Notes under the pieces: model-generated
Database searches by the model: none
Told to the model about the DNA's origin: nothing
What the model saw: only the letters and a program-made list of their open reading frames with translations
Shown: in pieces, positions 2,085 through 23,158 of the stretch
Position numbering within the stretch: the stretch's first letter is position 1
Layout: the number at the start of each line of letters is the position of its first letter
Made by a program: the position numbers and the translations under genes
NCBI GenBank assembly: GCA_030614005.1
Contig: JAUWKS010000028.1
Span: forward strand, 10,087 to 42,086
Direction: 5' to 3'
Origin: Candidatus Heimdallarchaeota archaeon
Lineage (GTDB): Archaea > Asgardarchaeota > Heimdallarchaeia > JABLTI01
DNA length: 32,000 nt

Positions 2085-2744
2085 ATGAGATACGTATTCG
2101 AACCATTAATCCTACAGGCAATTTGTAAAGAAGTGTTAAAGAATGTTGAAAACTCAAATAAAAATTCAGAACAGAAGTTAAATGAATTATTTGATAAACT
2201 AACTGCGAAATTGGCTCAAGAGTTTCCAACTTATATTAATACAGAAGAACGTAATTGGATTTTTAACAATGCTGGTGGCGCAATGGGGTCACTAACATTA
2301 TTACACGGGTCTCTGAAGGAATATTTGATTTTTTTTGGTACTCCTATTGGTACACATGGTCATTCAGGAAGATATCGAAGAGCAGATGTTTTTGATATAA
2401 TGTTAGATGGAGAAATGCTATGTTATAACGAAGATGAAATCACTCGAGCAACTTATTTGCCTGGTGATATGGCAATTCTAAAACGAAAACTAGCAAAAAG
2501 TTATCGAGTACCTGAAAGAGCTTGGATGTTAGAATACGCCCGAGGTAGTATTCCCGCTATGATTAGATTTGGCATTGGTGATAATCTCTACAGTAATTTT
2601 GATTATAAAAGCTCAAATCAGCTCATCAGAACTTACGGTAAAATGGTTGTTAAGAATCTCTTTAAGCTAAAGAAGAAAAGAAACTTACCTGTGAGCGAAA
2701 TTTATCGGGAAATTTTTTTACAGAGTAAAATTGATACATTATAA
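2085..2744 (+). CDS. ERG2 / sigma-1 receptor family protein (C-8 sterol isomerase-like cupin), lacking the N-terminal TM helix
   Basis: WIFNNAGGAMG, EYLIFFGT, GHSGRY and WMLEYARGSIP match yeast Erg2/human SIGMAR1 signatures recalled from memory. ATG 2085 follows an AGGTG RBS; the ORF track starts at TTG 2055. Confidence 0.9.
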   Translation: MRYVFEPLILQAICKEVLKNVENSNKNSEQKLNELFDKLTAKLAQEFPTYINTEERNWIFNNAGGAMGSLTLLHGSLKEYLIFFGTPIGTHGHSGRYRRADVFDIMLDGEMLCYNEDEITRATYLPGDMAILKRKLAKSYRVPERAWMLEYARGSIPAMIRFGIGDNLYSNFDYKSSNQLIRTYGKMVVKNLFKLKKKRNLPVSEIYREIFLQSKIDTL

Positions 2745-2777: not shown

Positions 2778-4001
2778 CTAAGTTTTTCGATTAACTTCCA
2801 TTATTTTTTCAGCTAGTTTTATTGTAGAATTGTACCCATTTTCAGCCGATTTTGTTGGAAGAACAATACTACAGAATGGATCTCCTTTTTCAAGGAGAAC
2901 ATTATAATGAGTTCGGTCTACGATCCACTTACTTTTTGGATATTTCACTACTGGAAATTTTTCTTCAACATCTGAAAATAAAATACCTTTCACCGAGTAA
3001 TTATGATATTTGGGTTTCTTAGGAAGCTCATGAACAACTCCATTAAAAGCATCAATATGTAGTTTTACAACATTGTGACCTGTTGCATATTCTACACATT
3101 CCAGGCAGCCTTGGAATCGCGGATTAACTTCCATGAAAAAAAGCTTTTCATTTTTGATGACAAAATCGATTCCATTTGACCCAACTAAATCTAGTTTTAG
3201 AAAAATTTCTCTGATATTTTCTAGACTTTGATCAAGTAATTTAGGGTTTGTTTCTGTTTCTTTTAATGGAACGATATTGCCACAATAAGAAAAATCTCCG
3301 GGAGAATTAAAATTACTATCACCGATAATTTGTTTGTTTATCGAAAGAATCTGCACAACATCTTTTGCACAAATAACAGACGAGCTTGCATCTGAACCTT
3401 TGATAAACTCTTGTAACCAAACTTCTTTATCGTAGTTTTCGTCTTTCAACTCAAAGTATTCCTTAAGTTCAGTATATTTGGACCAGTACTTTATACCAAC
3501 TCCTCCTCCGCCACCAGAACCTCTTGTAACAAGAGGAAATGGTCTATTTTTTGCCTCTTCTACTAGCTCCTCAATATTTGTGAATGATTGGGAAAACGGA
3601 ATATGAAAACCAGCATCCTCAGCAATTTTAAACATCGCTTTTTTATCTCTGGTTAAAGCAAATTTTTCAGGAGAATTTGCATATACTTTTGGTCCTAACT
3701 GATTGAATTGCTCAACAATTTCTGGATAACGATCAAACGCAGATCCAAATAGAATTCCATCAAAATCTCTTTGTTCATCTATCATAATTTCAGAAAGAAT
3801 ATAGAGATATTCCGGTGGAGAACGATGCAAAGGTCGATGAAGTGTTTGTCCTGGTTTTTGTCTTAGAACAGAAAAACAATTTTTGGAAATGTTAATTAAA
3901 TCCATGTCTCCAAAATAATCAATTGTACCAATATCATAGCCTGCATTTTTTGCTGCTTTAGCGATAGGTCTGGCATTAAAGCCAGAAATTAGAAATTTCA
4001 T
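2778..4001 (-). CDS. ATP-grasp carboligase (COG2232-like, often linked to C1/cofactor genes)
   Basis: N-terminal GFNARPIAKAA...IDYFGDMDL and ATP-grasp motifs WLQEFIKG, YCGN, GSNGIDF and EVNPRFQG. Confidence 0.85.
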   Translation of the reverse strand: MKFLISGFNARPIAKAAKNAGYDIGTIDYFGDMDLINISKNCFSVLRQKPGQTLHRPLHRSPPEYLYILSEIMIDEQRDFDGILFGSAFDRYPEIVEQFNQLGPKVYANSPEKFALTRDKKAMFKIAEDAGFHIPFSQSFTNIEELVEEAKNRPFPLVTRGSGGGGGVGIKYWSKYTELKEYFELKDENYDKEVWLQEFIKGSDASSSVICAKDVVQILSINKQIIGDSNFNSPGDFSYCGNIVPLKETETNPKLLDQSLENIREIFLKLDLVGSNGIDFVIKNEKLFFMEVNPRFQGCLECVEYATGHNVVKLHIDAFNGVVHELPKKPKYHNYSVKGILFSDVEEKFPVVKYPKSKWIVDRTHYNVLLEKGDPFCSIVLPTKSAENGYNSTIKLAEKIMEVNRKT

Positions 4002-9464: not shown

Positions 9465-10157
9465 TTGAGTGATAAAGAAAAAATAAGTGATGCCTACCAA
9501 AATTTTGCAGAAGGGTTAGAAGAGATTGAAGAAGAAGATAAGGAAAAGCGAAAAGAAGTATTGAAGAAAGGGATAATGGATCTTGAGCAAGAATATCGTG
9601 ATGAAATTAAAGGCACTCATGCAGTTGATGCACGAATAGTTAAACTCCGAAAGGACGCAGATATGCCTGAATTGATTGGTGTTGGAGACCGTGTACAAAA
9701 GAGTCGATTTAAAGACAAAAGCAAATATGAACAGTTTCTTGCCAAGGAAATATTAGAAGTAGGCATAGAGGAAAGTAAAAGTTATGGAGGAATTATGACC
9801 TTCAAAGAATTTTGTCTACGCTTTGTTAAACAAAGACCTAACTGGGAAGCACCTTCTAAGGAAATTAGAAAAGCTTTAGAATATCTCGCTAAAGCAGGAC
9901 TCATTCCCAAATTATATAAAATGAAGACTAAAGACAATCTGATTACGTTTAAACCTGTTGAATTACACGGTGATGTCATAACTGTTCTTAATATTGCATC
10001 AACTACTGGTTCAATAAGCGTTGCAGAAATTGTGGCAATAATCGGATGGAAAAAAGAGCGTGTTGAATTAACGTTAAGAAATTTGTCTGAACAAGAAATG
10101 GCTTATTATGATAAAAAGGAAGATGTCTATTTCTTTCCGAGTTTAAGAAAGAAATAA
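9465..10157 (+). CDS. ESCRT-II Vps22/Vps36-like protein (EAP30 domain, tandem winged helices)
   Basis: GGIMTFKEF, ELHGDVITVLNIASTTGSISVAEIVAIIGWKKERVELTLRNL and VYFFPSL align by eye to human SNF8 (GGLITLEEL; ELNMDHTVVLQLAEKNGYVTVSEIKASLKWETERARQVLEHL; YWLPAL). Confidence 0.85.
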   Translation: MSDKEKISDAYQNFAEGLEEIEEEDKEKRKEVLKKGIMDLEQEYRDEIKGTHAVDARIVKLRKDADMPELIGVGDRVQKSRFKDKSKYEQFLAKEILEVGIEESKSYGGIMTFKEFCLRFVKQRPNWEAPSKEIRKALEYLAKAGLIPKLYKMKTKDNLITFKPVELHGDVITVLNIASTTGSISVAEIVAIIGWKKERVELTLRNLSEQEMAYYDKKEDVYFFPSLRKK

Positions 10158-10248: not shown

Positions 10249-11481
10249 TTGAAGAAGATCCTTATTGTTGATTATATAGTCGGAGGAGGATTTGCAGAAG
10301 AAGATCTCCCACTAGATCGTCTTGCAGAAGGTTATGCTATTTTACGAGCATGTGTAGAACATTTTGCTATGCTCGGTTATAAAATTTCTACCTTAATAGA
10401 TCAAAGACTTATGCAACATATCCGAATCTCTCCAATACATGATTTCATTTCTGTTGCTACTTACGAAGATTTTATTACAGGATTACAAACTCTATCTGAT
10501 AAAGTAGATTATTCAATGACTTCTGCACCTGAATCAAAAGGCATTTTGAAAGATCTTTCTTCACTAATGCAAAATTCAAAATCACTTTATCTTGGTAGTA
10601 AACCAGAATCAATTGAAATTGCTGCTGACAAAATAAAAACAATGGAACTTGCTAAGAAACTGGGTTTAAATGTTCCAGCTACCTTTTCCCCTTCGTATAA
10701 CGACTCATTTGAGAAAATTCAGTCTGACGTAGATATCCTTGGATATCCCTTAATTATTAAACCAATTGACGGTAGTGGTTGCAAAGGATTAACTAAAGCA
10801 ACCAATGCAGATGGTCTGCGATTTGGATTACAGTCTGCTCATTCAGTAACTAACATGGAGAACTGTATTGTTCAGGAATTCATCCCAGGAGTGCCTATCA
10901 GTGTGAGCATAATCGCAAAAAATGAGAAAGTATATCCTATTTCAATTAATCGCCAAAAACTTCGATTAGATTCCAAGAACTATACTGGTCACTATCTCGG
11001 TGGTGAAATTCCTTTTAGCATTCCTGAATATAAAGATGAAATTATTAAAACTTCTATAAAATTAGTGAAAGAAATGGGTTTACAAGGGTGTGTAGGTGTA
11101 GACCTTATCGCTGGAGAAGAAGGTGTATTTGTTATCGAAGTAAATCCTCGAATAACTGTGCCCTATATTGCCCTTAAAGAGATAACGTCTCAAAATCTTG
11201 CGCAAATTTTAGTAGATTTAATAGAACACGATAAAGAAGTTCCTGAAATTACCTTTAATGGTTGTGTAACCTTTTCCAAGGTTTCTATTCCATCTTCTGT
11301 TAGCAAAACAGCTCAGTTTGAGCGAGTCACAGGAATTGATGGTGTTCAAGCTCCTCCATTGTCCATTAGTAACAATTCTCAAATTTACTCTTTAATTATG
11401 GGTTTCGGGCCCACTATTGCTCAAGCAAGAAAAGATTTCCAGCGAGTCAAAAATGAAGTTTTAAATAGCTTATCAGGTTAA
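10249..11481 (+). CDS. ATP-grasp ligase, MfnD (tyramine--L-glutamate ligase)/COG1821-like
   Basis: N-terminal ILIVDYIVGGG...EGYAIL, APE, DKIKT, IIKPIDGSG, QEFIPG, GCVGVD and IEVNPRIT. Confidence 0.8.
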   Translation: MKKILIVDYIVGGGFAEEDLPLDRLAEGYAILRACVEHFAMLGYKISTLIDQRLMQHIRISPIHDFISVATYEDFITGLQTLSDKVDYSMTSAPESKGILKDLSSLMQNSKSLYLGSKPESIEIAADKIKTMELAKKLGLNVPATFSPSYNDSFEKIQSDVDILGYPLIIKPIDGSGCKGLTKATNADGLRFGLQSAHSVTNMENCIVQEFIPGVPISVSIIAKNEKVYPISINRQKLRLDSKNYTGHYLGGEIPFSIPEYKDEIIKTSIKLVKEMGLQGCVGVDLIAGEEGVFVIEVNPRITVPYIALKEITSQNLAQILVDLIEHDKEVPEITFNGCVTFSKVSIPSSVSKTAQFERVTGIDGVQAPPLSISNNSQIYSLIMGFGPTIAQARKDFQRVKNEVLNSLSG

Positions 11482-12132: not shown

Positions 12133-13968
12133 TTGAATATTCGTTCAAAGAAATTTATGACATATGCACTTTTAGTTTTAGTGATACCCTTTGTCTCGCT
12201 AATGACATTAAAACAACATGACGTTGCTGCTGAAAGTCCAACTATTAGTATTACTGATGTGACCTCTACTCCTACGTATCGAATTGATGTCACAGTTGAA
12301 ATTACTTTAACTGGGTACAATTATGATTTGTATACCGAAACACTTTACTTGTATCTAAATCAATCTGAAGCAAATATCCTCATTGATCTTGCCGATGATG
12401 AATATACTGGTTATAATTCTTCCAAAACTTTCGGTAGACAAGATGAAGCAACTTTTGAAGCTTCTATTCTTTCGCCAACATTATCTGATGGTTCAGGCGA
12501 AGATTCAGCTAAATATAATGTAACTGTTGTTGCTCTTACAAATACCGACGAACAAAGTGATATTGTTGCATGGAGCGGTGGTTACATTTTCATTGATACT
12601 GAACCTCCTAAGGTTATCTTTGATACCCCAGCAATAGGTTACGAAGAAGTTTGGGGAATTTACCAAATAAAAGCCAATATAACTGACATCTCAAATTTGA
12701 GCCTTGTCCAATTTTTTGTTAATGGTGAAGAACGACATAGAATTGAAAACCCTGATCCAGCACAAATAACATTTACTTGGGATTATGAAAGCTACAAAGA
12801 AGTTGCTGAAGAACCTCTAATTAAGGTTGCAGCTTACGATAATAGTTCAGCAATGAATCTTGAGGATAATACTACAACAGTAAAAGTTGTAGGACCTTCC
12901 TTACAATTAGAACAATCCATTCCAACAATCATCGACTCAAATGAAACTTTGTATTTTAATGCAACAATAACAGATACAAATAACCCTGAAATTGATCTTG
13001 ATTATGTTGGACTCCTATACTCCATAGATGGAGGAGCATGGGTTGAAGTAGCATTCAATAATCTAACAGTAGATGAAGCAACTCAAGGTAAATTCAATTA
13101 TACTCTTAGTCCACAACCTGTGGGAACAATGATTGAATGGAAAATCTATGCAAATAATACTGATGGACAATATCATGAATTCAAGAATGAAACATATCAA
13201 CCATTTGTAGCAAAATCAGTATTTCCAGACCACATCCTACCAACAGGTGAAGTAGAATATGATACAACAGTAACTTATGGCTTAAATGTAACTGTGAAAC
13301 TAAATGTAACAGAGCATAGTGTGGTTAACTTCTGCTATTTAAATTACAGAATTGATATAGAAGATGATTTTGAAGAGCTATTATTAACCAATACTACGAC
13401 AGGCGCAACAAACGATACTTGGTTCTATTTTGAATATAATTTCACAGAAACTTATGACGTATTTACTATTATTGACTTCTATTTCTGGGTAAATGATAGT
13501 GGTAGTAATGAACTCACTCTAGATGATGGAGGAAAATATTACCATATCAAAGTAATGCCAATCGATTTGGTTGCACCTGTGATCAACATCACCGCAGTAC
13601 CAGAAACAATTGTTTCCGGTCAGAATATTACTATAACAGTAACCATTGAAGAATCCAGTATTCTACTCTCGGTTCAAGTATTTTATACTGTTAATGGTGA
13701 ACAACATGTAGTTGATATGACCTACGTGTCTGGAACAACATATTCTGCAAGCTTTGTAGTACATGCAAGCACAGGTGATAAAGTAGAAATCTTTGTGAGA
13801 GCATATGATGAATACTATAATACTGCAGTTTCTGAAGTATACCAGTTCGATATCGAATCCGCAAAACCATCTGGATCACATTCAAACGCTTGGTTATGGT
13901 TAATGCTTATTGCTTTGATTATTATCCCACTAGCAATAACATTCGTATTACTAAAACCACAAAAATAA
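12133..13968 (+). CDS. Cell-surface glycoprotein with multiple Ig-like beta-sandwich domains, an N-terminal signal/TM segment and a C-terminal TM anchor
   Basis: Hydrophobic N-terminus, C-terminal WLWLMLIALIIIPLAITFVLL followed by KPQK, recurrent D-x-x-x-P linkers (DTEPP, DHILP, DLVAP), and about 21 N-x-S/T sequons counted by hand. Confidence 0.85.
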   Translation: MNIRSKKFMTYALLVLVIPFVSLMTLKQHDVAAESPTISITDVTSTPTYRIDVTVEITLTGYNYDLYTETLYLYLNQSEANILIDLADDEYTGYNSSKTFGRQDEATFEASILSPTLSDGSGEDSAKYNVTVVALTNTDEQSDIVAWSGGYIFIDTEPPKVIFDTPAIGYEEVWGIYQIKANITDISNLSLVQFFVNGEERHRIENPDPAQITFTWDYESYKEVAEEPLIKVAAYDNSSAMNLEDNTTTVKVVGPSLQLEQSIPTIIDSNETLYFNATITDTNNPEIDLDYVGLLYSIDGGAWVEVAFNNLTVDEATQGKFNYTLSPQPVGTMIEWKIYANNTDGQYHEFKNETYQPFVAKSVFPDHILPTGEVEYDTTVTYGLNVTVKLNVTEHSVVNFCYLNYRIDIEDDFEELLLTNTTTGATNDTWFYFEYNFTETYDVFTIIDFYFWVNDSGSNELTLDDGGKYYHIKVMPIDLVAPVINITAVPETIVSGQNITITVTIEESSILLSVQVFYTVNGEQHVVDMTYVSGTTYSASFVVHASTGDKVEIFVRAYDEYYNTAVSEVYQFDIESAKPSGSHSNAWLWLMLIALIIIPLAITFVLLKPQK

Positions 13969-13980
13969 TCAAATTATTGA

Positions 13981-14000
13981 TTGAGGGTTTACTCCCTCAA
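13981..14000 (+). terminator. Hairpin downstream of the surface-protein gene
   Basis: TTGAGGG-TTTACT-CCCTCAA, a perfect 7-bp stem followed by a T-rich tract. Confidence 0.45.
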
Positions 14001-14251
14001 AATATCTCTTTTTTCATATCAAGTTTTAATAATTTTCTTAGTTAAATTTCTAAAAAAAATATGATTTATTAAAAGTAATTTTGAATTTTTAATTCCAAAT
14101 TAATTAATTTTTTTGCCTCTCTTGCCTTAGAATAATTTTACTTGTTACTTTAGTAAAATATTTAAGAAATTAAGAAGCAACTATTAATATTTGAAAAGTA
14201 TAAAAATAATTACAATTAAAATTATTCAATTAACAGATATATGTACATTAA

Positions 14252-14746
14252 ATGAGCTCTCCCCAAATGATTCAGAATTTAATTATTATTAAAGATAGTT
14301 TATCAATTTTTAATACAAACTTTGGCAATTGCCATAAATTAGATTCTGATCCTTTATTGCTTTCAGCATTTTTTGATGCGCTCCTCATATTTGCAAATGA
14401 ATTTGAACAAGGAAAATTAGAACAATTAAACTTTAAAGATACAAAAGTAAATTTCTATAGTAAAGATAAACTCCTCTTTTTAACCATTTCAGATTTAGAC
14501 GATAAGCAAGGTGTAATTCAAACTAAATTGAAAAAAATTGCAAAATTCTTCTTAGATGAATATGCAGAAGTTTTAACAAATTATAACGGAGAGATATCTC
14601 AATTTTACGAATTCAAGGATTTATTAATTGAAGAGAAAATTGCCCAAATTAATTGTGGAAAGTATCCTGAATGTTCAAGTTGTCCAAATAGGGATAATGA
14701 TAGTGTTATTCTTACTGAAATGTTGAAAAATGACTCAATTGAATAA
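14252..14746 (+). CDS. Longin-like domain protein with a C-terminal Cys motif
   Basis: Order beta-beta-helix(LLSAFFDALLIFANE)-beta-beta-beta-helix(KLKKIAKFFLDEY)-helix(FYEFKDLL) typical of longin/sigma-adaptin folds. Tail CGKYPECSSC. Confidence 0.7.
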   Translation: MSSPQMIQNLIIIKDSLSIFNTNFGNCHKLDSDPLLLSAFFDALLIFANEFEQGKLEQLNFKDTKVNFYSKDKLLFLTISDLDDKQGVIQTKLKKIAKFFLDEYAEVLTNYNGEISQFYEFKDLLIEEKIAQINCGKYPECSSCPNRDNDSVILTEMLKNDSIE

Positions 14747-14887
14747 GATGATTTAGAAGAGATTTTTACAATATTTTATTCCTTGAAATTTTTTAGTTTT
14801 TGTGTGTCGTGCTGATTCAATAATAATTTAAATTGGAAATTAAATAATGTTCTCAAATATATCAAGAGAAAATTAGGTGAGCTATCT

Positions 14888-15088
14888 ATGCCTGTAATAA
14901 CAGTAGAAGGTTCAATAAAGAGTGTTAACGAAAAAAGGAAATTGGTTGAATTGCTAACAAAAGCAATGAAAGAAGCTTATGGATATCCCGAAGAATTTTC
15001 ACATATAACAGTGATCATTAATGAGAATAGTTCTGAAAACATTGGAACCAATGGTAAGCTTCTGGTTGATATAAGAAAAAGTGAATAG
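14888..15088 (+). CDS. 4-oxalocrotonate tautomerase family protein
   Basis: 66 aa with the catalytic Pro1 (MPVITVEG), KRKLVELLT and an IINE...NIGTNGKL pattern. Confidence 0.9.
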   Translation: MPVITVEGSIKSVNEKRKLVELLTKAMKEAYGYPEEFSHITVIINENSSENIGTNGKLLVDIRKSE

Positions 15089-15094
15089 ATTTCT

Positions 15095-16067
15095 CTATTC
15101 CTCTTTCTTTAAAACATACGCAAGTTTTACCCAATCTTCCTTGAACCCTTTAGCTTTGTAAAGATTGTAAGCAGGACTATTGGACAAATCAACATTCAGA
15201 CTTGCAGTTTTATAGTCATTTTCTACCAATTTATTTAGCATTGTATCTATGAGAAATGAACCAATACTGAGTCTACGATATTTTGGATGTACACCCAATA
15301 TCCAAAGATTGCCATTTTGTGGTCCATGAGATTCTCTAACTACTGAAAAAGCAATCATTTTGTTATCTTCAAATATACCAAATGAGCTCTCATTGATTAA
15401 TTTGAATGAATCATCTATTATTCTATTTTCGAAATAATCTTTGATTTCATCATCAGATAAACTTTGCATCCATTTATCTTCGGTGTCTTTAAGTGTGCTA
15501 TAAAAGCAATTGTAAAAGTCATCATTATTTGCATGCGAAATTGGTTTTATCTGTCGTTTGGTATCTACTTGCAGATGGCGTTGTTGATAATTAACAAGAT
15601 CCATTCTCATATGACAAATTTGTTCTATTAAGTCAAATTTATTCGAATCATATAGTTTCTTGAATAATTGTTCTTCTTCGGAACCTTCTTTGTTAAAAAG
15701 TAATTCAATCCGTGTATTACTCACTTTGATTAAAGTATTCAATTGCATCTTTGAGTAAATGCTTAGCAATATTCTCTTTGTCTTTATTGAGTCCTATAAT
15801 TGGATGACCACCTAATGCAAAAGGATTGAGCTCTAGTTCTGTTTTTGAATGTGCAAATAGCATTAACCATCCAACTAGTTGAGTATCACGTTTTGCTTGA
15901 ATAATTTGAGGTTCAATGGTATATTCAAGATTTTTCAACCAATTAGTAAAATTATCTACTGTATATTGGTTCCCCTTAACATTCCAACTGTCTACTGATA
16001 ATTTGGCTAGCTCTGCTAATTCGATTTCAGCATAATTATTTGTGATGTAAGTTATTTGATTGGCCAT
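15095..16067 (-). pseudogene. Tandem-domain GNAT acetyltransferase interrupted by a 1-nt frameshift near 15717-15719
   Basis: The upstream ORF (16067-15717) has a GGAGTG RBS and ends at YFNQSE*. The downstream frame continues TRIELLF...KKLYDSNKF and includes a full second GNAT (LGVHPKYRRLSIGS, NSPAYNLYKAKGF). Removing one A from GAG TAA TAC ACG gives GAG TAT ACA CGG (E-Y-T-R) and joins the frames. Confidence 0.75.
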
Positions 16068-19551: not shown

Positions 19552-19660
19552 TGGTGGGCCCACCCGGATTTGAACCAGGGGCCTCCCGGTTTTTGAGATA
19601 AGCAGACTCGTCTGATTTTCTTATCAGCCGAGCGCTCTAACCAAGCTGAGCTACGGGCCC
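19552..19660 (-). tRNA. tRNA-Ile(GAT) with encoded CCA and a 31-nt canonical 37/38 intron (19591-19621)
   Basis: Reverse complement: GGGCCCG TA GCTC AGCTTGGTTA GAGC G CTCGG CTGATA [31 nt] A CCGGG AGGCC CCTGG TTCAAAT CCGGG TGGGCCC A CCA. All stems pair, and the anticodon is GAT. Confidence 0.95.
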
Positions 19661-19970: not shown

Positions 19971-20549
19971 ATGTCACAAAATGATGGAAAAGCAATAAAC
20001 GCAATCTTAAAGTTAGTACTCCTAGGCGATGGTGCTGTAGGAAAAACAACTATGAGACGCCAATTTCTTGGTGAAGGATTTAAAGCAGGATATTCTGCCA
20101 CCATTGGTGCTGATTTTGCAATTAAGAGAATTAATCTTGAAAATTACCGTTTAACATTTCAAATCTGGGATTTAGCAGGTCAACAAAGGTTCGCTGCTGT
20201 TAGAGAATTATACTATCGTGGTTCTCGTGGTGCCCTGTTAGTTTTTGATGTCACTAACCCCAGCTCATTTAACAATCTCCCTACTTGGCTTGAAGAGCTC
20301 TGGAAAAAAGCTGGACGAGTTCCTATGATTCTCTGCGGAAATAAGATTGATCTTCGTTCTGAAGTTCCAAAAAGCATTTCTCCTGAATTGGGCCAAGAAT
20401 ATGCAAGAAGGCTTTCAGAAGCATTGGGATATGAAGTTCCTTATATTGAAACCAGTGCTAAAACTGGCGAGAAAGTTAATGAAGCATTCTTCCTCCTTGG
20501 TTTGAGTATTATTCGTTCCGTTAAACAACCAAAAACTATCCTAGAGTGA
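19971..20549 (+). CDS. Rab-like small GTPase, copy 1
   Basis: G1 GDGAVGKT, G2 TIGADF, G3 WDLAGQ, YYRGS, LVFDVT, G4 NKID and G5 ETSAK. No C-terminal Cys. Confidence 0.95.
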   Translation: MSQNDGKAINAILKLVLLGDGAVGKTTMRRQFLGEGFKAGYSATIGADFAIKRINLENYRLTFQIWDLAGQQRFAAVRELYYRGSRGALLVFDVTNPSSFNNLPTWLEELWKKAGRVPMILCGNKIDLRSEVPKSISPELGQEYARRLSEALGYEVPYIETSAKTGEKVNEAFFLLGLSIIRSVKQPKTILE

Positions 20550-20757: not shown

Positions 20758-21327
20758 TTGAGTAGTCATCAAAAATCTACAGTATACAAAGTTGTTTTAC
20801 TTGGAGACGGTGCTGTCGGTAAAACAAGCATTCGACAACAATATCTTGGCAAAGGTTTCAAAGAAGGTTACTCAATGACCATTGGTGCCGATTTTTGTGT
20901 TAAACGTGTTGAGCTCTCCAATATAATCATTACTTTTCAAATATGGGATCTTGCTGGACAACAAAGGTTTGATGTAGTTCGAGAAGTGTATTATCGTGGT
21001 AGTAGTGGTGCATTATTGATTTTTGATGTATCAAATCCCGGCTCTTTTGAGAATTTACCTGCTTGGTTAAATGAATTAACAAAAAACAATTACGATCGTA
21101 TTGTTCCCATTGTTTTAATTGGAAACAAAACTGATCTTCGTGGAACCGCTCCTTGTTTGCCCAAAGAAGCAGGACAACAATATGCTGCTGCTTTATCTCA
21201 ATGGACTGGTTTTGATGTTCCTTATCTTGAAACATCTGCAAAATCTGGTTTAAATGTTGAAGAGGCATTTGGTCTTCTTTCAAAACAAATTGAGCTTTTC
21301 TTGGATAAATACCAACTACGAGGTTAA
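20758..21327 (+). CDS. Rab-like small GTPase, copy 2
   Basis: GDGAVGKT, TIGADF, WDLAGQ, YYRGS, LIFDVS, NKTD and ETSAK. TTG start after GGAG. No C-terminal Cys. Confidence 0.95.
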   Translation: MSSHQKSTVYKVVLLGDGAVGKTSIRQQYLGKGFKEGYSMTIGADFCVKRVELSNIIITFQIWDLAGQQRFDVVREVYYRGSSGALLIFDVSNPGSFENLPAWLNELTKNNYDRIVPIVLIGNKTDLRGTAPCLPKEAGQQYAAALSQWTGFDVPYLETSAKSGLNVEEAFGLLSKQIELFLDKYQLRG

Positions 21328-22096: not shown

Positions 22097-22597
22097 ATGT
22101 CAAAAGCAAAGACAAGTAGTCGAACAGCTAAAAAGGATGATAATACTCCTTTAATGGAACGGCTGCCTTCAAATGTGCCCTTTGCACCTCTTGTTCGTAG
22201 ACCTGATTACCAACTGAGATTTGTTAAATTCTCGGTTCCAACAACTATACCAATTGAGATAATAATCGCGGTAGTATTTATTGGATTATTCTTTATCTAT
22301 ATGGGTGGATTCTACGATTTAGCTCAAGACAATCTAAGTGCCTTTGGTTCCGATAAACAAGGCAATCCAATAGTAATTTATCCAAACCAATTAGATTCCC
22401 AATTTCTTGTTGAAGGAATGGCTGCAGGACTCCTAATGTTTATTGGAGCTGGTGGTTTCTTTCTACTTTATTACTCAACGCAATATGCTTATTCACCAAA
22501 AAATGCTACTGTTCTTCTAGTAGTTGGAATTGGTGTTGTCGCACTTGCATGGATAGCAATAATGTATATGTTGCTTACGAAAATGGGTATTTGGTAA
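22097..22597 (+). CDS. OSTC/DC2-like (OST3/OST6 family) oligosaccharyltransferase subunit, copy 2
   Basis: Three TM helices. GGFYDL...SQFLVEGMAAGLLMFIGAGGFFLL...TKMG aligns by eye to human OSTC GGIIYDV...[24 protein letters not shown]...MKLPG. Confidence 0.85.
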   Translation: MSKAKTSSRTAKKDDNTPLMERLPSNVPFAPLVRRPDYQLRFVKFSVPTTIPIEIIIAVVFIGLFFIYMGGFYDLAQDNLSAFGSDKQGNPIVIYPNQLDSQFLVEGMAAGLLMFIGAGGFFLLYYSTQYAYSPKNATVLLVVGIGVVALAWIAIMYMLLTKMGIW

Positions 22598-22747: not shown

Positions 22748-23158
22748 TTATTTTTCATCTTTAAATTGTTTATCAATTAATTCTTGGAAATCTTTCTTCT
22801 TTTTTGCACCAGAAAATTGGCCAACAACTTTTCCTTCTTTAAAGAGATAGAAGGTAGGAACATATCTGATTTGATATTGAATCGCTGCCTGCCTTTCTTG
22901 ATCGGTGTTAATTTTACCAAAAGCAACTTTTCCTTTATAGATTTCAGCTAAATCTTTTGTTATAGGATCCATTATTTTACAGGGAGGGCACCAAGTTGCA
23001 TAGAAATCAACGATTACATATTTGCTATTATCAATAAATGCTTGAAGATCTTTGCTCTTTAAAACCGTAACTTCTCCGCTTGCATTTGTACTTTGGTTCA
23101 TAATATCACTCACAATTTTTGCTTTAATTAGTTCTAATTCTTTGTCTTCTGAACTCAA
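22748..23158 (-). CDS. trxA: Thioredoxin
   Basis: VDFYATWCPPCK, IRYVPT and FKEG, with an archaeal-type N-terminal helix (DKELELIKAK). No signal peptide. Confidence 0.93.
   Translation of the reverse strand: MSSEDKELELIKAKIVSDIMNQSTNASGEVTVLKSKDLQAFIDNSKYVIVDFYATWCPPCKIMDPITKDLAEIYKGKVAFGKINTDQERQAAIQYQIRYVPTFYLFKEGKVVGQFSGAKKKKDFQELIDKQFKDEK

Follow-up and report, generated by a model that had tools for sequence, protein, structure and literature searches.

The sigma-1 receptor, whose endogenous ligand is still debated, belongs to the ERG2/sigma-1-receptor family. In a 2023 paper from its own field it was called an evolutionary isolate with yeast ERG2 as its only known homologue (PMC10094450). 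Prokaryotic ERG2-family proteins are already annotated in databases, and those of myxobacteria, Dadabacteria and sponge symbionts are discussed in two further papers (PMC8237579, PMC9531527), the second of which places ERG2-family genes within some bacterial steroid gene clusters. Here, we analysed a family member encoded at positions 2085–2744 of a 32,000-nucleotide (nt) stretch of DNA, referred to as the window, from Candidatus Heimdallarchaeota archaeon (GenBank assembly GCA_030614005.1, contig JAUWKS010000028.1, positions 10,087–42,086 of the forward strand). The gene probably encodes a small, anchor-less lipid-pocket protein of the sigma-1 type that was imported rather than inherited from the archaeal ancestor of eukaryotes (rough probability 0.55). 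No description of an Asgard ERG2-family gene was found in the literature searched, and none is mentioned in the available portion of PMC8237579.

Gene and protein identity

The gene and the codons of its predicted ligand-contacting triad are located as follows (residue equivalences from alignment offsets to structures 5hk1 and 7w2b).

2085–2744, + strand: ERG2/sigma-1-receptor-family gene, 219 codons plus stop (Pfam PF04622, AlphaFold2 model, Foldseek, dN/dS)
2322–2324, + strand: codon of Tyr80, equivalent to sigma-1 Tyr103 (column 99% conserved, n = 120 family members)
2394–2396, + strand: codon of Asp104, equivalent to sigma-1 Asp126 (Phe at this position in fungal ERG2 enzymes)
2532–2534, + strand: codon of Glu150, equivalent to sigma-1 Glu172

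The protein matched the Pfam family PF04622 (ERG2_Sigma1R) at E 1.1e-58 with 198.5 bits (score cut-off 21 bits), over profile positions 21–208 of 210, and reached 203 bits in a profile search of the genome. Comparison with PDB sequences by phmmer retrieved the Xenopus and human sigma-1 receptors (E 6e-29 to 1e-26). The profile match confirms the family assignment made in an initial annotation, which had been derived from the sequence alone. All four motifs named there were recovered at the positions claimed: NNAGGAMG at residues 61–68 (nt 2265–2288), GHSGRY at residues 92–97 (nt 2358–2375), DVFD at residues 101–104 (nt 2385–2396) and WMLEY at residues 147–151 (nt 2523–2537). The proposed counterparts of Asp126 and Glu172 were likewise recovered in the alignment to 5hk1 and 7w2b, as Asp104 and Glu150. 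The family-invariant residues E79, Y80, G95, G109, E150, Y151 and G154 are all kept (columns 93–100% conserved, n = 120), and the other pocket positions N61, N62, A66 and V142 match the general family consensus, not the Trp-rich pocket of the receptor. Starting at an alternative in-frame TTG codon (2055) would lengthen the protein by 10 non-hydrophobic residues.

Fold and relation to the membrane

An AlphaFold2 model based on a 120-sequence alignment (predicted local distance difference test score (pLDDT) 94.4, predicted template modelling score 0.91) shows the sigma-1-receptor fold, in which a cupin barrel is closed by two C-terminal helices. The best Foldseek matches were sigma-1 receptors (8wue, 7w2e and 5hk1; E 2e-20, TM-score 0.78–0.80), on which the model was superposed with root-mean-square deviations of 1.8–2.5 Å over about 195–201 aligned columns. 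Generic cupins followed as the next fold class, with TM-scores of 0.35–0.42. The structural elements are arranged as follows.

2103–2222, + strand: two N-terminal helices, residues 7–22 and 28–46, separated by a clade-specific insert of about 10 residues (model, alignment)
2259–2546, + strand: cupin β-barrel, residues 59–154, the ligand pocket by homology (secondary structure of the model, alignment to 7w2b and 5hk1)
2550–2666, + strand: helices equivalent to α4 and α5, residues 156–170 and 174–194, with D-N-L-Y-S-N-F-D at 166–173 (model, alignment)
2697–2738, + strand: extra C-terminal helix specific to the Heimdall clade, residues 205–218, pLDDT about 80 (model, alignment)

As the initial annotation had stated, the N-terminal transmembrane helix is missing: the maximum 19-residue Kyte-Doolittle mean of the protein is 0.94 (reference value for a transmembrane helix, about 1.6), the profile match begins at position 21, and no coding potential for a hidden anchor was found upstream. 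The accompanying description of a protein that starts directly at the cupin needs correction, since helices 7–22 and 28–46 precede the barrel. Judging from the model, these two helices seem to be the counterparts of those that follow the anchor in the receptor, so that the anchor helix alone would be missing. The further description as soluble goes further than the absence of a transmembrane helix warrants. The α5-equivalent helix 174–194 is amphipathic (hydrophobic moment 0.43) with a net charge of +5, and is followed by a clade-specific basic tail that ends in helix 205–218. The properties of the α5-like helix fit a peripheral membrane protein, which is at least as likely as a soluble one.

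Comparison with described family members

The protein most closely resembles the anchor-less prokaryotic ERG2-family proteins of about 186 residues (a D-N-x-F-S-N-x-D subclade with L047, L064, L074, L094 and L049, and others), which consist of the same domain from end to end and have no transmembrane helix. These share about 50% identity, the Asp/Glu/Tyr triad and a rare α4 motif with the window protein, and are encoded by stand-alone genes without conserved partners in mostly cyclase-less genomes. The Heimdall clade differs from them in its insert of about 10 residues, an additional residue after GHSGRY, a basic tail of about 25 residues that includes a helix, and its archaeal host.

With SIGMAR1 (5HK1, 7W2B, 8WUE), the window protein has in common the fold, the equivalents of Tyr103, Asp126 and Glu172, a GxxxG-like GGAMG and the α4/α5 lid. 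Unlike the receptor, it has no N-terminal transmembrane anchor, carries Ala66, Val142 and Asn61 in place of the pocket residues Trp89, Trp164 and Val84, respectively, and has basic lid helices that are far less hydrophobic. Its identity to solved sigma-1 receptors is 28–32%, and that to a bird sigma-1 receptor about 34%.

Fungal ERG2 proteins (Hanseniaspora, P0158; Auriculariales, P0157) share the Pfam family, NNAGGAMG, GHSG and the Glu of (L/V)E(Y/L). In contrast to the window protein, they possess an N-terminal anchor and 'DDYF ... FALE', with the Asp two residues earlier and Phe at the Asp126 position; they also fall into a separate clade with bacterial kin (100/99). The genome of the window has no sterol pathway. 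The proteins of Loki-group archaea (L015–L018, P0105) belong to the same family and are, like the window gene, rare accessory genes in Asgard archaea, but they carry a C-terminal transmembrane helix (residues 198–229 of P0105) and not the D-N-x-x-S-N-x-D motif.

A single-gene insertion between two conserved genes

The locus was compared across all 11 species of the genus by DNA search (G000 being the genome of the window). The inserted block, its borders and upstream signals, and the flanking genes, which lie outside the inserted unit, are as follows.

1940–2777, no strand: inserted block of 838 bp made up of the promoter region, the ERG2/sigma-1-family gene and a short spacer 3' of it (comparison with empty sites)
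1931–1935, + strand: CTAAT, left short-repeat copy at the block border, holding the stop codon of the pyridoxal-phosphate (PLP) enzyme gene
2778–2782, + strand: CTAAG, right short-repeat copy, holding the stop codon of the ATP-grasp gene (reverse strand)
1969–1976, + strand: TATA-like box TTTAAATA, with TTTAAA kept in G000, G010 and L107 (promoter role putative)
1995–2012, + strand: upstream block GTTAGAGGTC with inverted repeat AGAGGTcttACCTCT, kept in G000, G010 and L107
2073–2076, + strand: Shine-Dalgarno-like GGTG, 8 nt before the ATG, with GGTG(A) kept in G000, G010 and L107
681–1934, + strand: left flank, Cys/Met-metabolism PLP enzyme (Pfam PF01053, E 2e-138)
2778–4001, − strand: right flank, ATP-grasp enzyme (Pfam PF02655)

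The two flanking genes are convergent and adjoin each other in all 11 genus genomes. The ERG2-family gene was found in G000 and in Candidatus Heimdallarchaeota archaeon HM7_B34 (G010) only, the two copies being 86% identical at the nucleotide level. It is absent genome-wide from seven species (G003–G009), in which the flanking genes lie 34–82 bp apart. In G001 (locus L014), whose flanks are 87–88% identical to those of G000 at the nucleotide level, the site is precisely empty: the two flanking stop codons overlap, and the junction joins ...GATCTAAT directly to TTTTTCG...

A homologous locus is present on the metagenomic contig RCNB010014990.1 (L107), which encodes a 69%-identical protein followed downstream by the convergent ATP-grasp gene and then by the same 198-residue open reading frame (ORF), so that synteny of the ATP-grasp flank extends to this contig. 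In a tree of ATP-grasp proteins, L107 was placed as sister (98/97) to the clade of G000, G010 and G001 (100/100). The empty site of G001 was considered as the ancestral state and ruled out by the L107 contig together with this tree. The simplest history is a single insertion at the base of the subclade with vertical descent thereafter and one precise secondary deletion in G001.

ERG2 and ATP-grasp proteins have diverged in step (identity to G000 of 69% vs 63% for L107 and 84–86% vs 87% for G010), and the synonymous divergence (dS) between G000 and G010 is similar for the ERG2-family gene (0.65) and the PLP enzyme gene (0.59). The ratio of nonsynonymous to synonymous divergence (dN/dS) of the G000 and G010 orthologues is 0.12, which indicates purifying selection on the ERG2-family gene, and the GC content at third codon positions is 0.245 in this gene and 0.237 in a flanking gene. 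Taken together, in-step divergence, similar dS, purifying selection and native composition argue for vertical descent since the insertion. The inserted block carried its own upstream region. Within it, the GTTAGAGGTC block lies about 75–90 nt 5' of the ERG2-family start codon, and the remaining spacer has diverged. The block, matched by no Rfam family in the window, may act as a regulator site or form a hairpin in the 5' untranslated region.

Distribution among prokaryotes

Matches to PF04622 were detected in 9 of 399 Asgard-phylum genomes, from 5 of 85 genera. Among 1.84 billion representative proteins, 763 family clusters were recovered at E ≤ 1e-3. These prokaryotic homologues, many of them anchor-less and most of those examined with an Asp126/Glu172-type site, contrast with the view of the receptor as an evolutionary isolate (PMC10094450). 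When one genome per prokaryotic species was considered, relatives were found at 162 loci. The best 80 of these 162 were retained and derive mostly from Myxococcota/Polyangia, the other hosts being Dadabacteria, Spirochaetota, Clostridia/Bacillota, Chloroflexia, Mycobacterium and a Promethearchaeota (Loki-group) metagenome-assembled genome (MAG). Outside its own clade, the window protein was best matched by about 50% identical proteins of 186 residues named 'ERG2 family protein [Myxococcota]' by NCBI.

Anchor-less ERG2-family genes also occur in Mycobacterium colombiense and a Mycobacteriaceae MAG (L097, L087) and in Clostridia/Bacillota (L066, L078, L079). No triterpene cyclase was found in the tested genomes of L097, L087 and L079. 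The mycobacterial and Clostridia carriers may meet host or environmental steroids. The tail-anchored Loki-group gene is flanked by the same ORFs of about 393–396 and about 247 residues at all three loci inspected (L015, L016 and L017 in G260, G232 and G261), indicating a stable locus within that genus.

Phylogeny and a subfamily motif

Three trees of the family were computed: a FastTree overview (195 rows), a quick IQ-TREE (118 rows) and a careful tree under a posterior mean site frequency model with ultrafast bootstraps (81 rows, 185 columns). Eukaryotes were represented by a bird sigma-1 receptor, Galdieria, an amoebozoan and two fungal C-8 sterol isomerases (labels taken from the source names). 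A 24-row clade of the careful tree (96/82) unites bacteria with the eukaryotic sigma-1-like clade (100/99) and the fungal ERG2 clade, which in turn is embedded among Myxococcota and gammaproteobacterial sequences (100/99). The clade of the window protein falls outside this eukaryote-holding clade. It groups with a long-branched Asgard clade (L019/L020; 87/95), and both belong to a weak 24-row cluster (63/91) whose other members are a subclade from Myxococcota and Spirochaetota and a clade of N-extended bacterial proteins that includes one from Bdellovibrionota. A third Asgard clade is that of the Loki-group proteins, whose sister is a Spirochaetota protein (99/95). The Asgard carriers fall into three separate clades, and the Loki-group gene is an independent acquisition.

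In the quick tree, the N-extended bacterial clade appeared as the sister group, but the backbone of this tree was discarded: a tree constrained for the approximately unbiased (AU) test was 36 log-likelihood units better than the free tree, showing that the quick search had been inadequate.

The α4 motif D-N-x-x-S-N-x-D, present in the window protein as D166-N-L-Y-S-N-F-D173, is found in 26 of the 195 aligned members, namely the clade of the window protein, that of the Asgard sequences L019 and L020, and a 17-member bacterial subclade from Myxococcota and Spirochaetota. It was not found in the eukaryotic sequences of this alignment. A one-residue insertion after GHSGRY is common to the window clade and the N-extended bacterial clade. 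The motif, this insertion, the within-genus insertion of the gene and the ranking of identities together make a bacterial origin, possibly relayed via another Asgard archaeon, much the more likely.

Sterol pathway and classes of the acid pair

No match to squalene/phytoene synthase (SQS_PSY), squalene epoxidase, squalene/oxidosqualene cyclase, cytochrome P450 (CYP51) or ERG4/ERG24 was obtained in the 90% complete genome of the window, and for FA_hydroxylase a sub-threshold, stop-interrupted match was the only one; each sterol-pathway search gave matches in control genomes. The missing genes accord with the premise of the initial annotation that archaea are not known to make sterols, and imply that the ligand is not a self-made sterol. 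In keeping with this, Asgard archaea were reported to lack even genes for steroid precursors by Hoshino & Gaucher 2021 (PMC8237579). A full-length triterpene cyclase was present in 12 of 25 bacterial carriers tested and missing from the other 13; in the bacterial subclade that shares the α4 motif, it was found in one of seven tested genomes.

The family divides according to its acid pair. The sigma-1-type arrangement (Asp at the Asp126 position, W-M-L-E-Y) is the state of 155 of 195 members; the window protein shares it with most bacteria and the eukaryotic sigma-1 clade. The fungal-type arrangement (D-D-Y-F ... F-A-L-E; 29/195) is confined to the enzymes of fungi and to related bacterial sequences, which are a few Myxococcota and gammaproteobacterial proteins (examples are L076, L093, L095, L096 and the fungal P0157 and P0158). 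D-V-F-D and W-M-L-E of the window protein therefore differ from the enzyme arrangement (D/E)-D-(Y/W)-F and (F/W)-A-L-E. To our knowledge, proven isomerase activity is confined to the fungal-type class, and we know of no sterol isomerase activity in animal sigma-1 receptors. On the sequence comparison, this split may separate the true C-8 sterol isomerases from the other family members.

The neighbourhoods of 42 bacterial and Asgard homologues were surveyed (22 cyclase-poor and Asgard loci with 122 ORFs, and 20 Myxococcota-type loci with 89 ORFs). Response regulators and radical SAM enzymes were the families most often seen among the neighbours, and no lipid theme emerged. The sole sterol gene was an ERG4/ERG24 reductase gene 27 bp upstream of the homologue L093, a member of the fungal-type clade (all statements on L093, its neighbour, cyclase and tree position, rest on the unpublished genome G418). 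A link with an SRD5A-like steroid/polyprenol reductase was considered and rejected, as the reductase gene occurs in 9 of the 11 genus genomes regardless of the presence of ERG2.

Proposed mechanism and alternative explanations

We propose that the protein sits on the membrane surface by means of its basic amphipathic α5-like helix and that a hydrophobic ligand would enter the cupin barrel from the bilayer through the α4/α5 lid, as in sigma-1 receptors. Glu150, positioned by Asp104 and Tyr80, would hold a positive centre of the ligand. This could be an ammonium group, if the protein binds or carries its ligand, or a carbocation-like transition state, if it migrates a double bond. Candidate ligands are polycyclic lipids that the cell scavenges and lipids other than sterols. 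We lean towards binding or handling of a lipid over the sterol C8–C7 isomerase reaction of the fungal type, given that the acid pair is of the sigma-1 type, unlike that of the proven enzymes.

Several observations weigh against the reading of an imported lipid-pocket protein. The completeness of the genome makes the absence of the pathway strong, not absolute. No conserved gene partner emerged from the 42 neighbourhoods, so that the assignment of function rests on homology. The pocket residues N61, N62 and A66 represent a family consensus that is also seen in fungal enzymes, which would allow an enzymatic role. No sign of transfer was detected in the composition of the gene. The gene tree is poorly supported along its backbone, as seen from the 63/91 support of the cluster that joins the window clade to bacteria, and in the AU test a grouping of the window clade with the eukaryotic sigma-1 clade was 6.5 log-likelihood units lower and not rejected (p = 0.43). 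Nesting among bacteria, which the initial annotation had named as the sign of a recent transfer, is weakly evident in the maximum-likelihood tree, with the alternative placement left standing by the test.

An active double-bond isomerase that acts on sterols or polycyclic triterpenoids from the sediment, with Glu150 and Asp104 as the acid-base pair used in the manner of ERG2 on Δ8 sterols, is a less likely but tangible alternative. It would accord with full family membership, an intact pocket whose N61, N62 and A66 follow the ERG2/bacterial consensus and not the Trp-rich sigma-1 version, the existence of cyclase-less carriers including mycobacteria, Clostridia and Spirochaetota, and the presence of family genes in bacterial steroid clusters (PMC9531527) and, for L093, 27 bp after an ERG4/ERG24 reductase gene. 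Set against this, fungal ERG2 and its bacterial kin have D at the position of residue 102 and F at that of residue 104 ('DDYF...FALEY'), whereas the window protein shows the arrangement of the animal receptors, which as far as we know have no isomerase activity. Moreover, a sterol transporter, a reductase or a steroid-modifying partner was not found in the genome or neighbourhood, the SRD5A-like gene being independent of ERG2. A C-8 isomerase serving a cryptic, complete sterol pathway in the archaeon has the family name alone in its favour, along with the room that 90% completeness leaves for unassembled genes. Since the pathway genes were unmatched where the controls matched, and PMC8237579 reports Asgard archaea without steroid-precursor genes, this explanation is hardly credible.

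The initial annotation had also suggested that the gene could bear on the origin of this protein family of the endoplasmic reticulum (ER). Vertical inheritance within Asgard archaea, or a position of the Asgard clade nearer to eukaryotic sigma-1 receptors than any other prokaryotic group, is compatible with the AU result (p = 0.43), with the finding that the constrained tree scored above the poorly searched quick tree, and with the Asp126/Glu172-type pair in both groups. Most of the family (155/195) has that pair, however, so that it is no shared derived character. Both eukaryotic clades lie in the 96/82 clade with bacteria from which the window clade is excluded, and D-N-x-x-S-N-x-D ties the window clade to bacteria while being absent from the eukaryotic sequences. 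The gene entered as a single-gene insert inside one genus and is present in 9 of 399 Asgard genomes, and its product is about 50% identical to bacterial proteins as opposed to 28–34% to sigma-1 receptors. Such an inheritance is consequently judged highly improbable. The more specific proposal, in which the Heimdall clade is the closest prokaryotic relative and the receptor's Asp/Glu site began, in the archaeal or bacterial partners of eukaryogenesis, as a means of handling lipids independently of sterols, is given equally little credence. The bearing on ER-family origin is not upheld by an 838-bp insert in one subclade, a family scattered over three Asgard clades and a motif shared with a bacterial subfamily and missing from the eukaryotic sequences. 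The other suggestion made at the outset, a transfer from sterol-making bacteria, retains its first half: transfer and patchy Asgard distribution are supported, but a sterol-making source is not, given the single cyclase among seven tested genomes of the nearest subfamily and the sigma-1-type acid pair.

Finally, an artefact in the form of a mis-binned bacterial contig or a decaying pseudogene was considered with regard to the bacterial affiliation of the nearest named relatives. The flanks are syntenic in 11 of 11 genus genomes, the contig is of the Asgard type (the window contains a gene for an EAP30/Vps36 protein of the endosomal sorting complex required for transport II (ESCRT-II), two Ras/Rab-like GTPase genes, an OST3/6-like gene and an intron-bearing tRNA gene), and the gene is intact in five sequences (G000, G010, L107 and two others), with a dN/dS of 0.12 and native composition. 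The synteny refutes an artefact, which is next to inconceivable.

Implications for the family

For eukaryote origins, the import of the gene favoured here has a mostly negative meaning: an imported Asgard gene should not be invoked as an archaeal forerunner of either sterol biology or the sigma-1 receptor. About half of the sampled carrier genomes are unable to make sterols or hopanoids, and the ligands of the small homologues could reveal the original purpose of the pocket. Small anchor-less homologues, including the 219-residue protein described here, should be suited to expression and crystallisation.

Other features of the window

The EAP30/Vps36-family (ESCRT-II-like) gene, an Asgard signature gene, is located at 9465–10157 and is followed by a second ATP-grasp gene (10249–11481), a paralogue of the ATP-grasp gene that flanks the ERG2 insert. 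Two tandem genes for Ras/Rab-like small GTPases are found at 19971–20549 and 20758–21327 (Pfam Ras, E 7e-48 and 5e-46, respectively), with an OST3/OST6-like ORF that scores below the Pfam cut-off (22097–22597) and a thioredoxin gene (22748–23158) close by. A tRNA gene of 106 nt (19555–19660, − strand) matches the full Rfam model of 71 positions, which implies an intron. An ORF of 611 residues at 12133–13968 had no Pfam match at E 1e-5, and the lowest GC content of the window (0.276) was measured at about 14000 to 16000.

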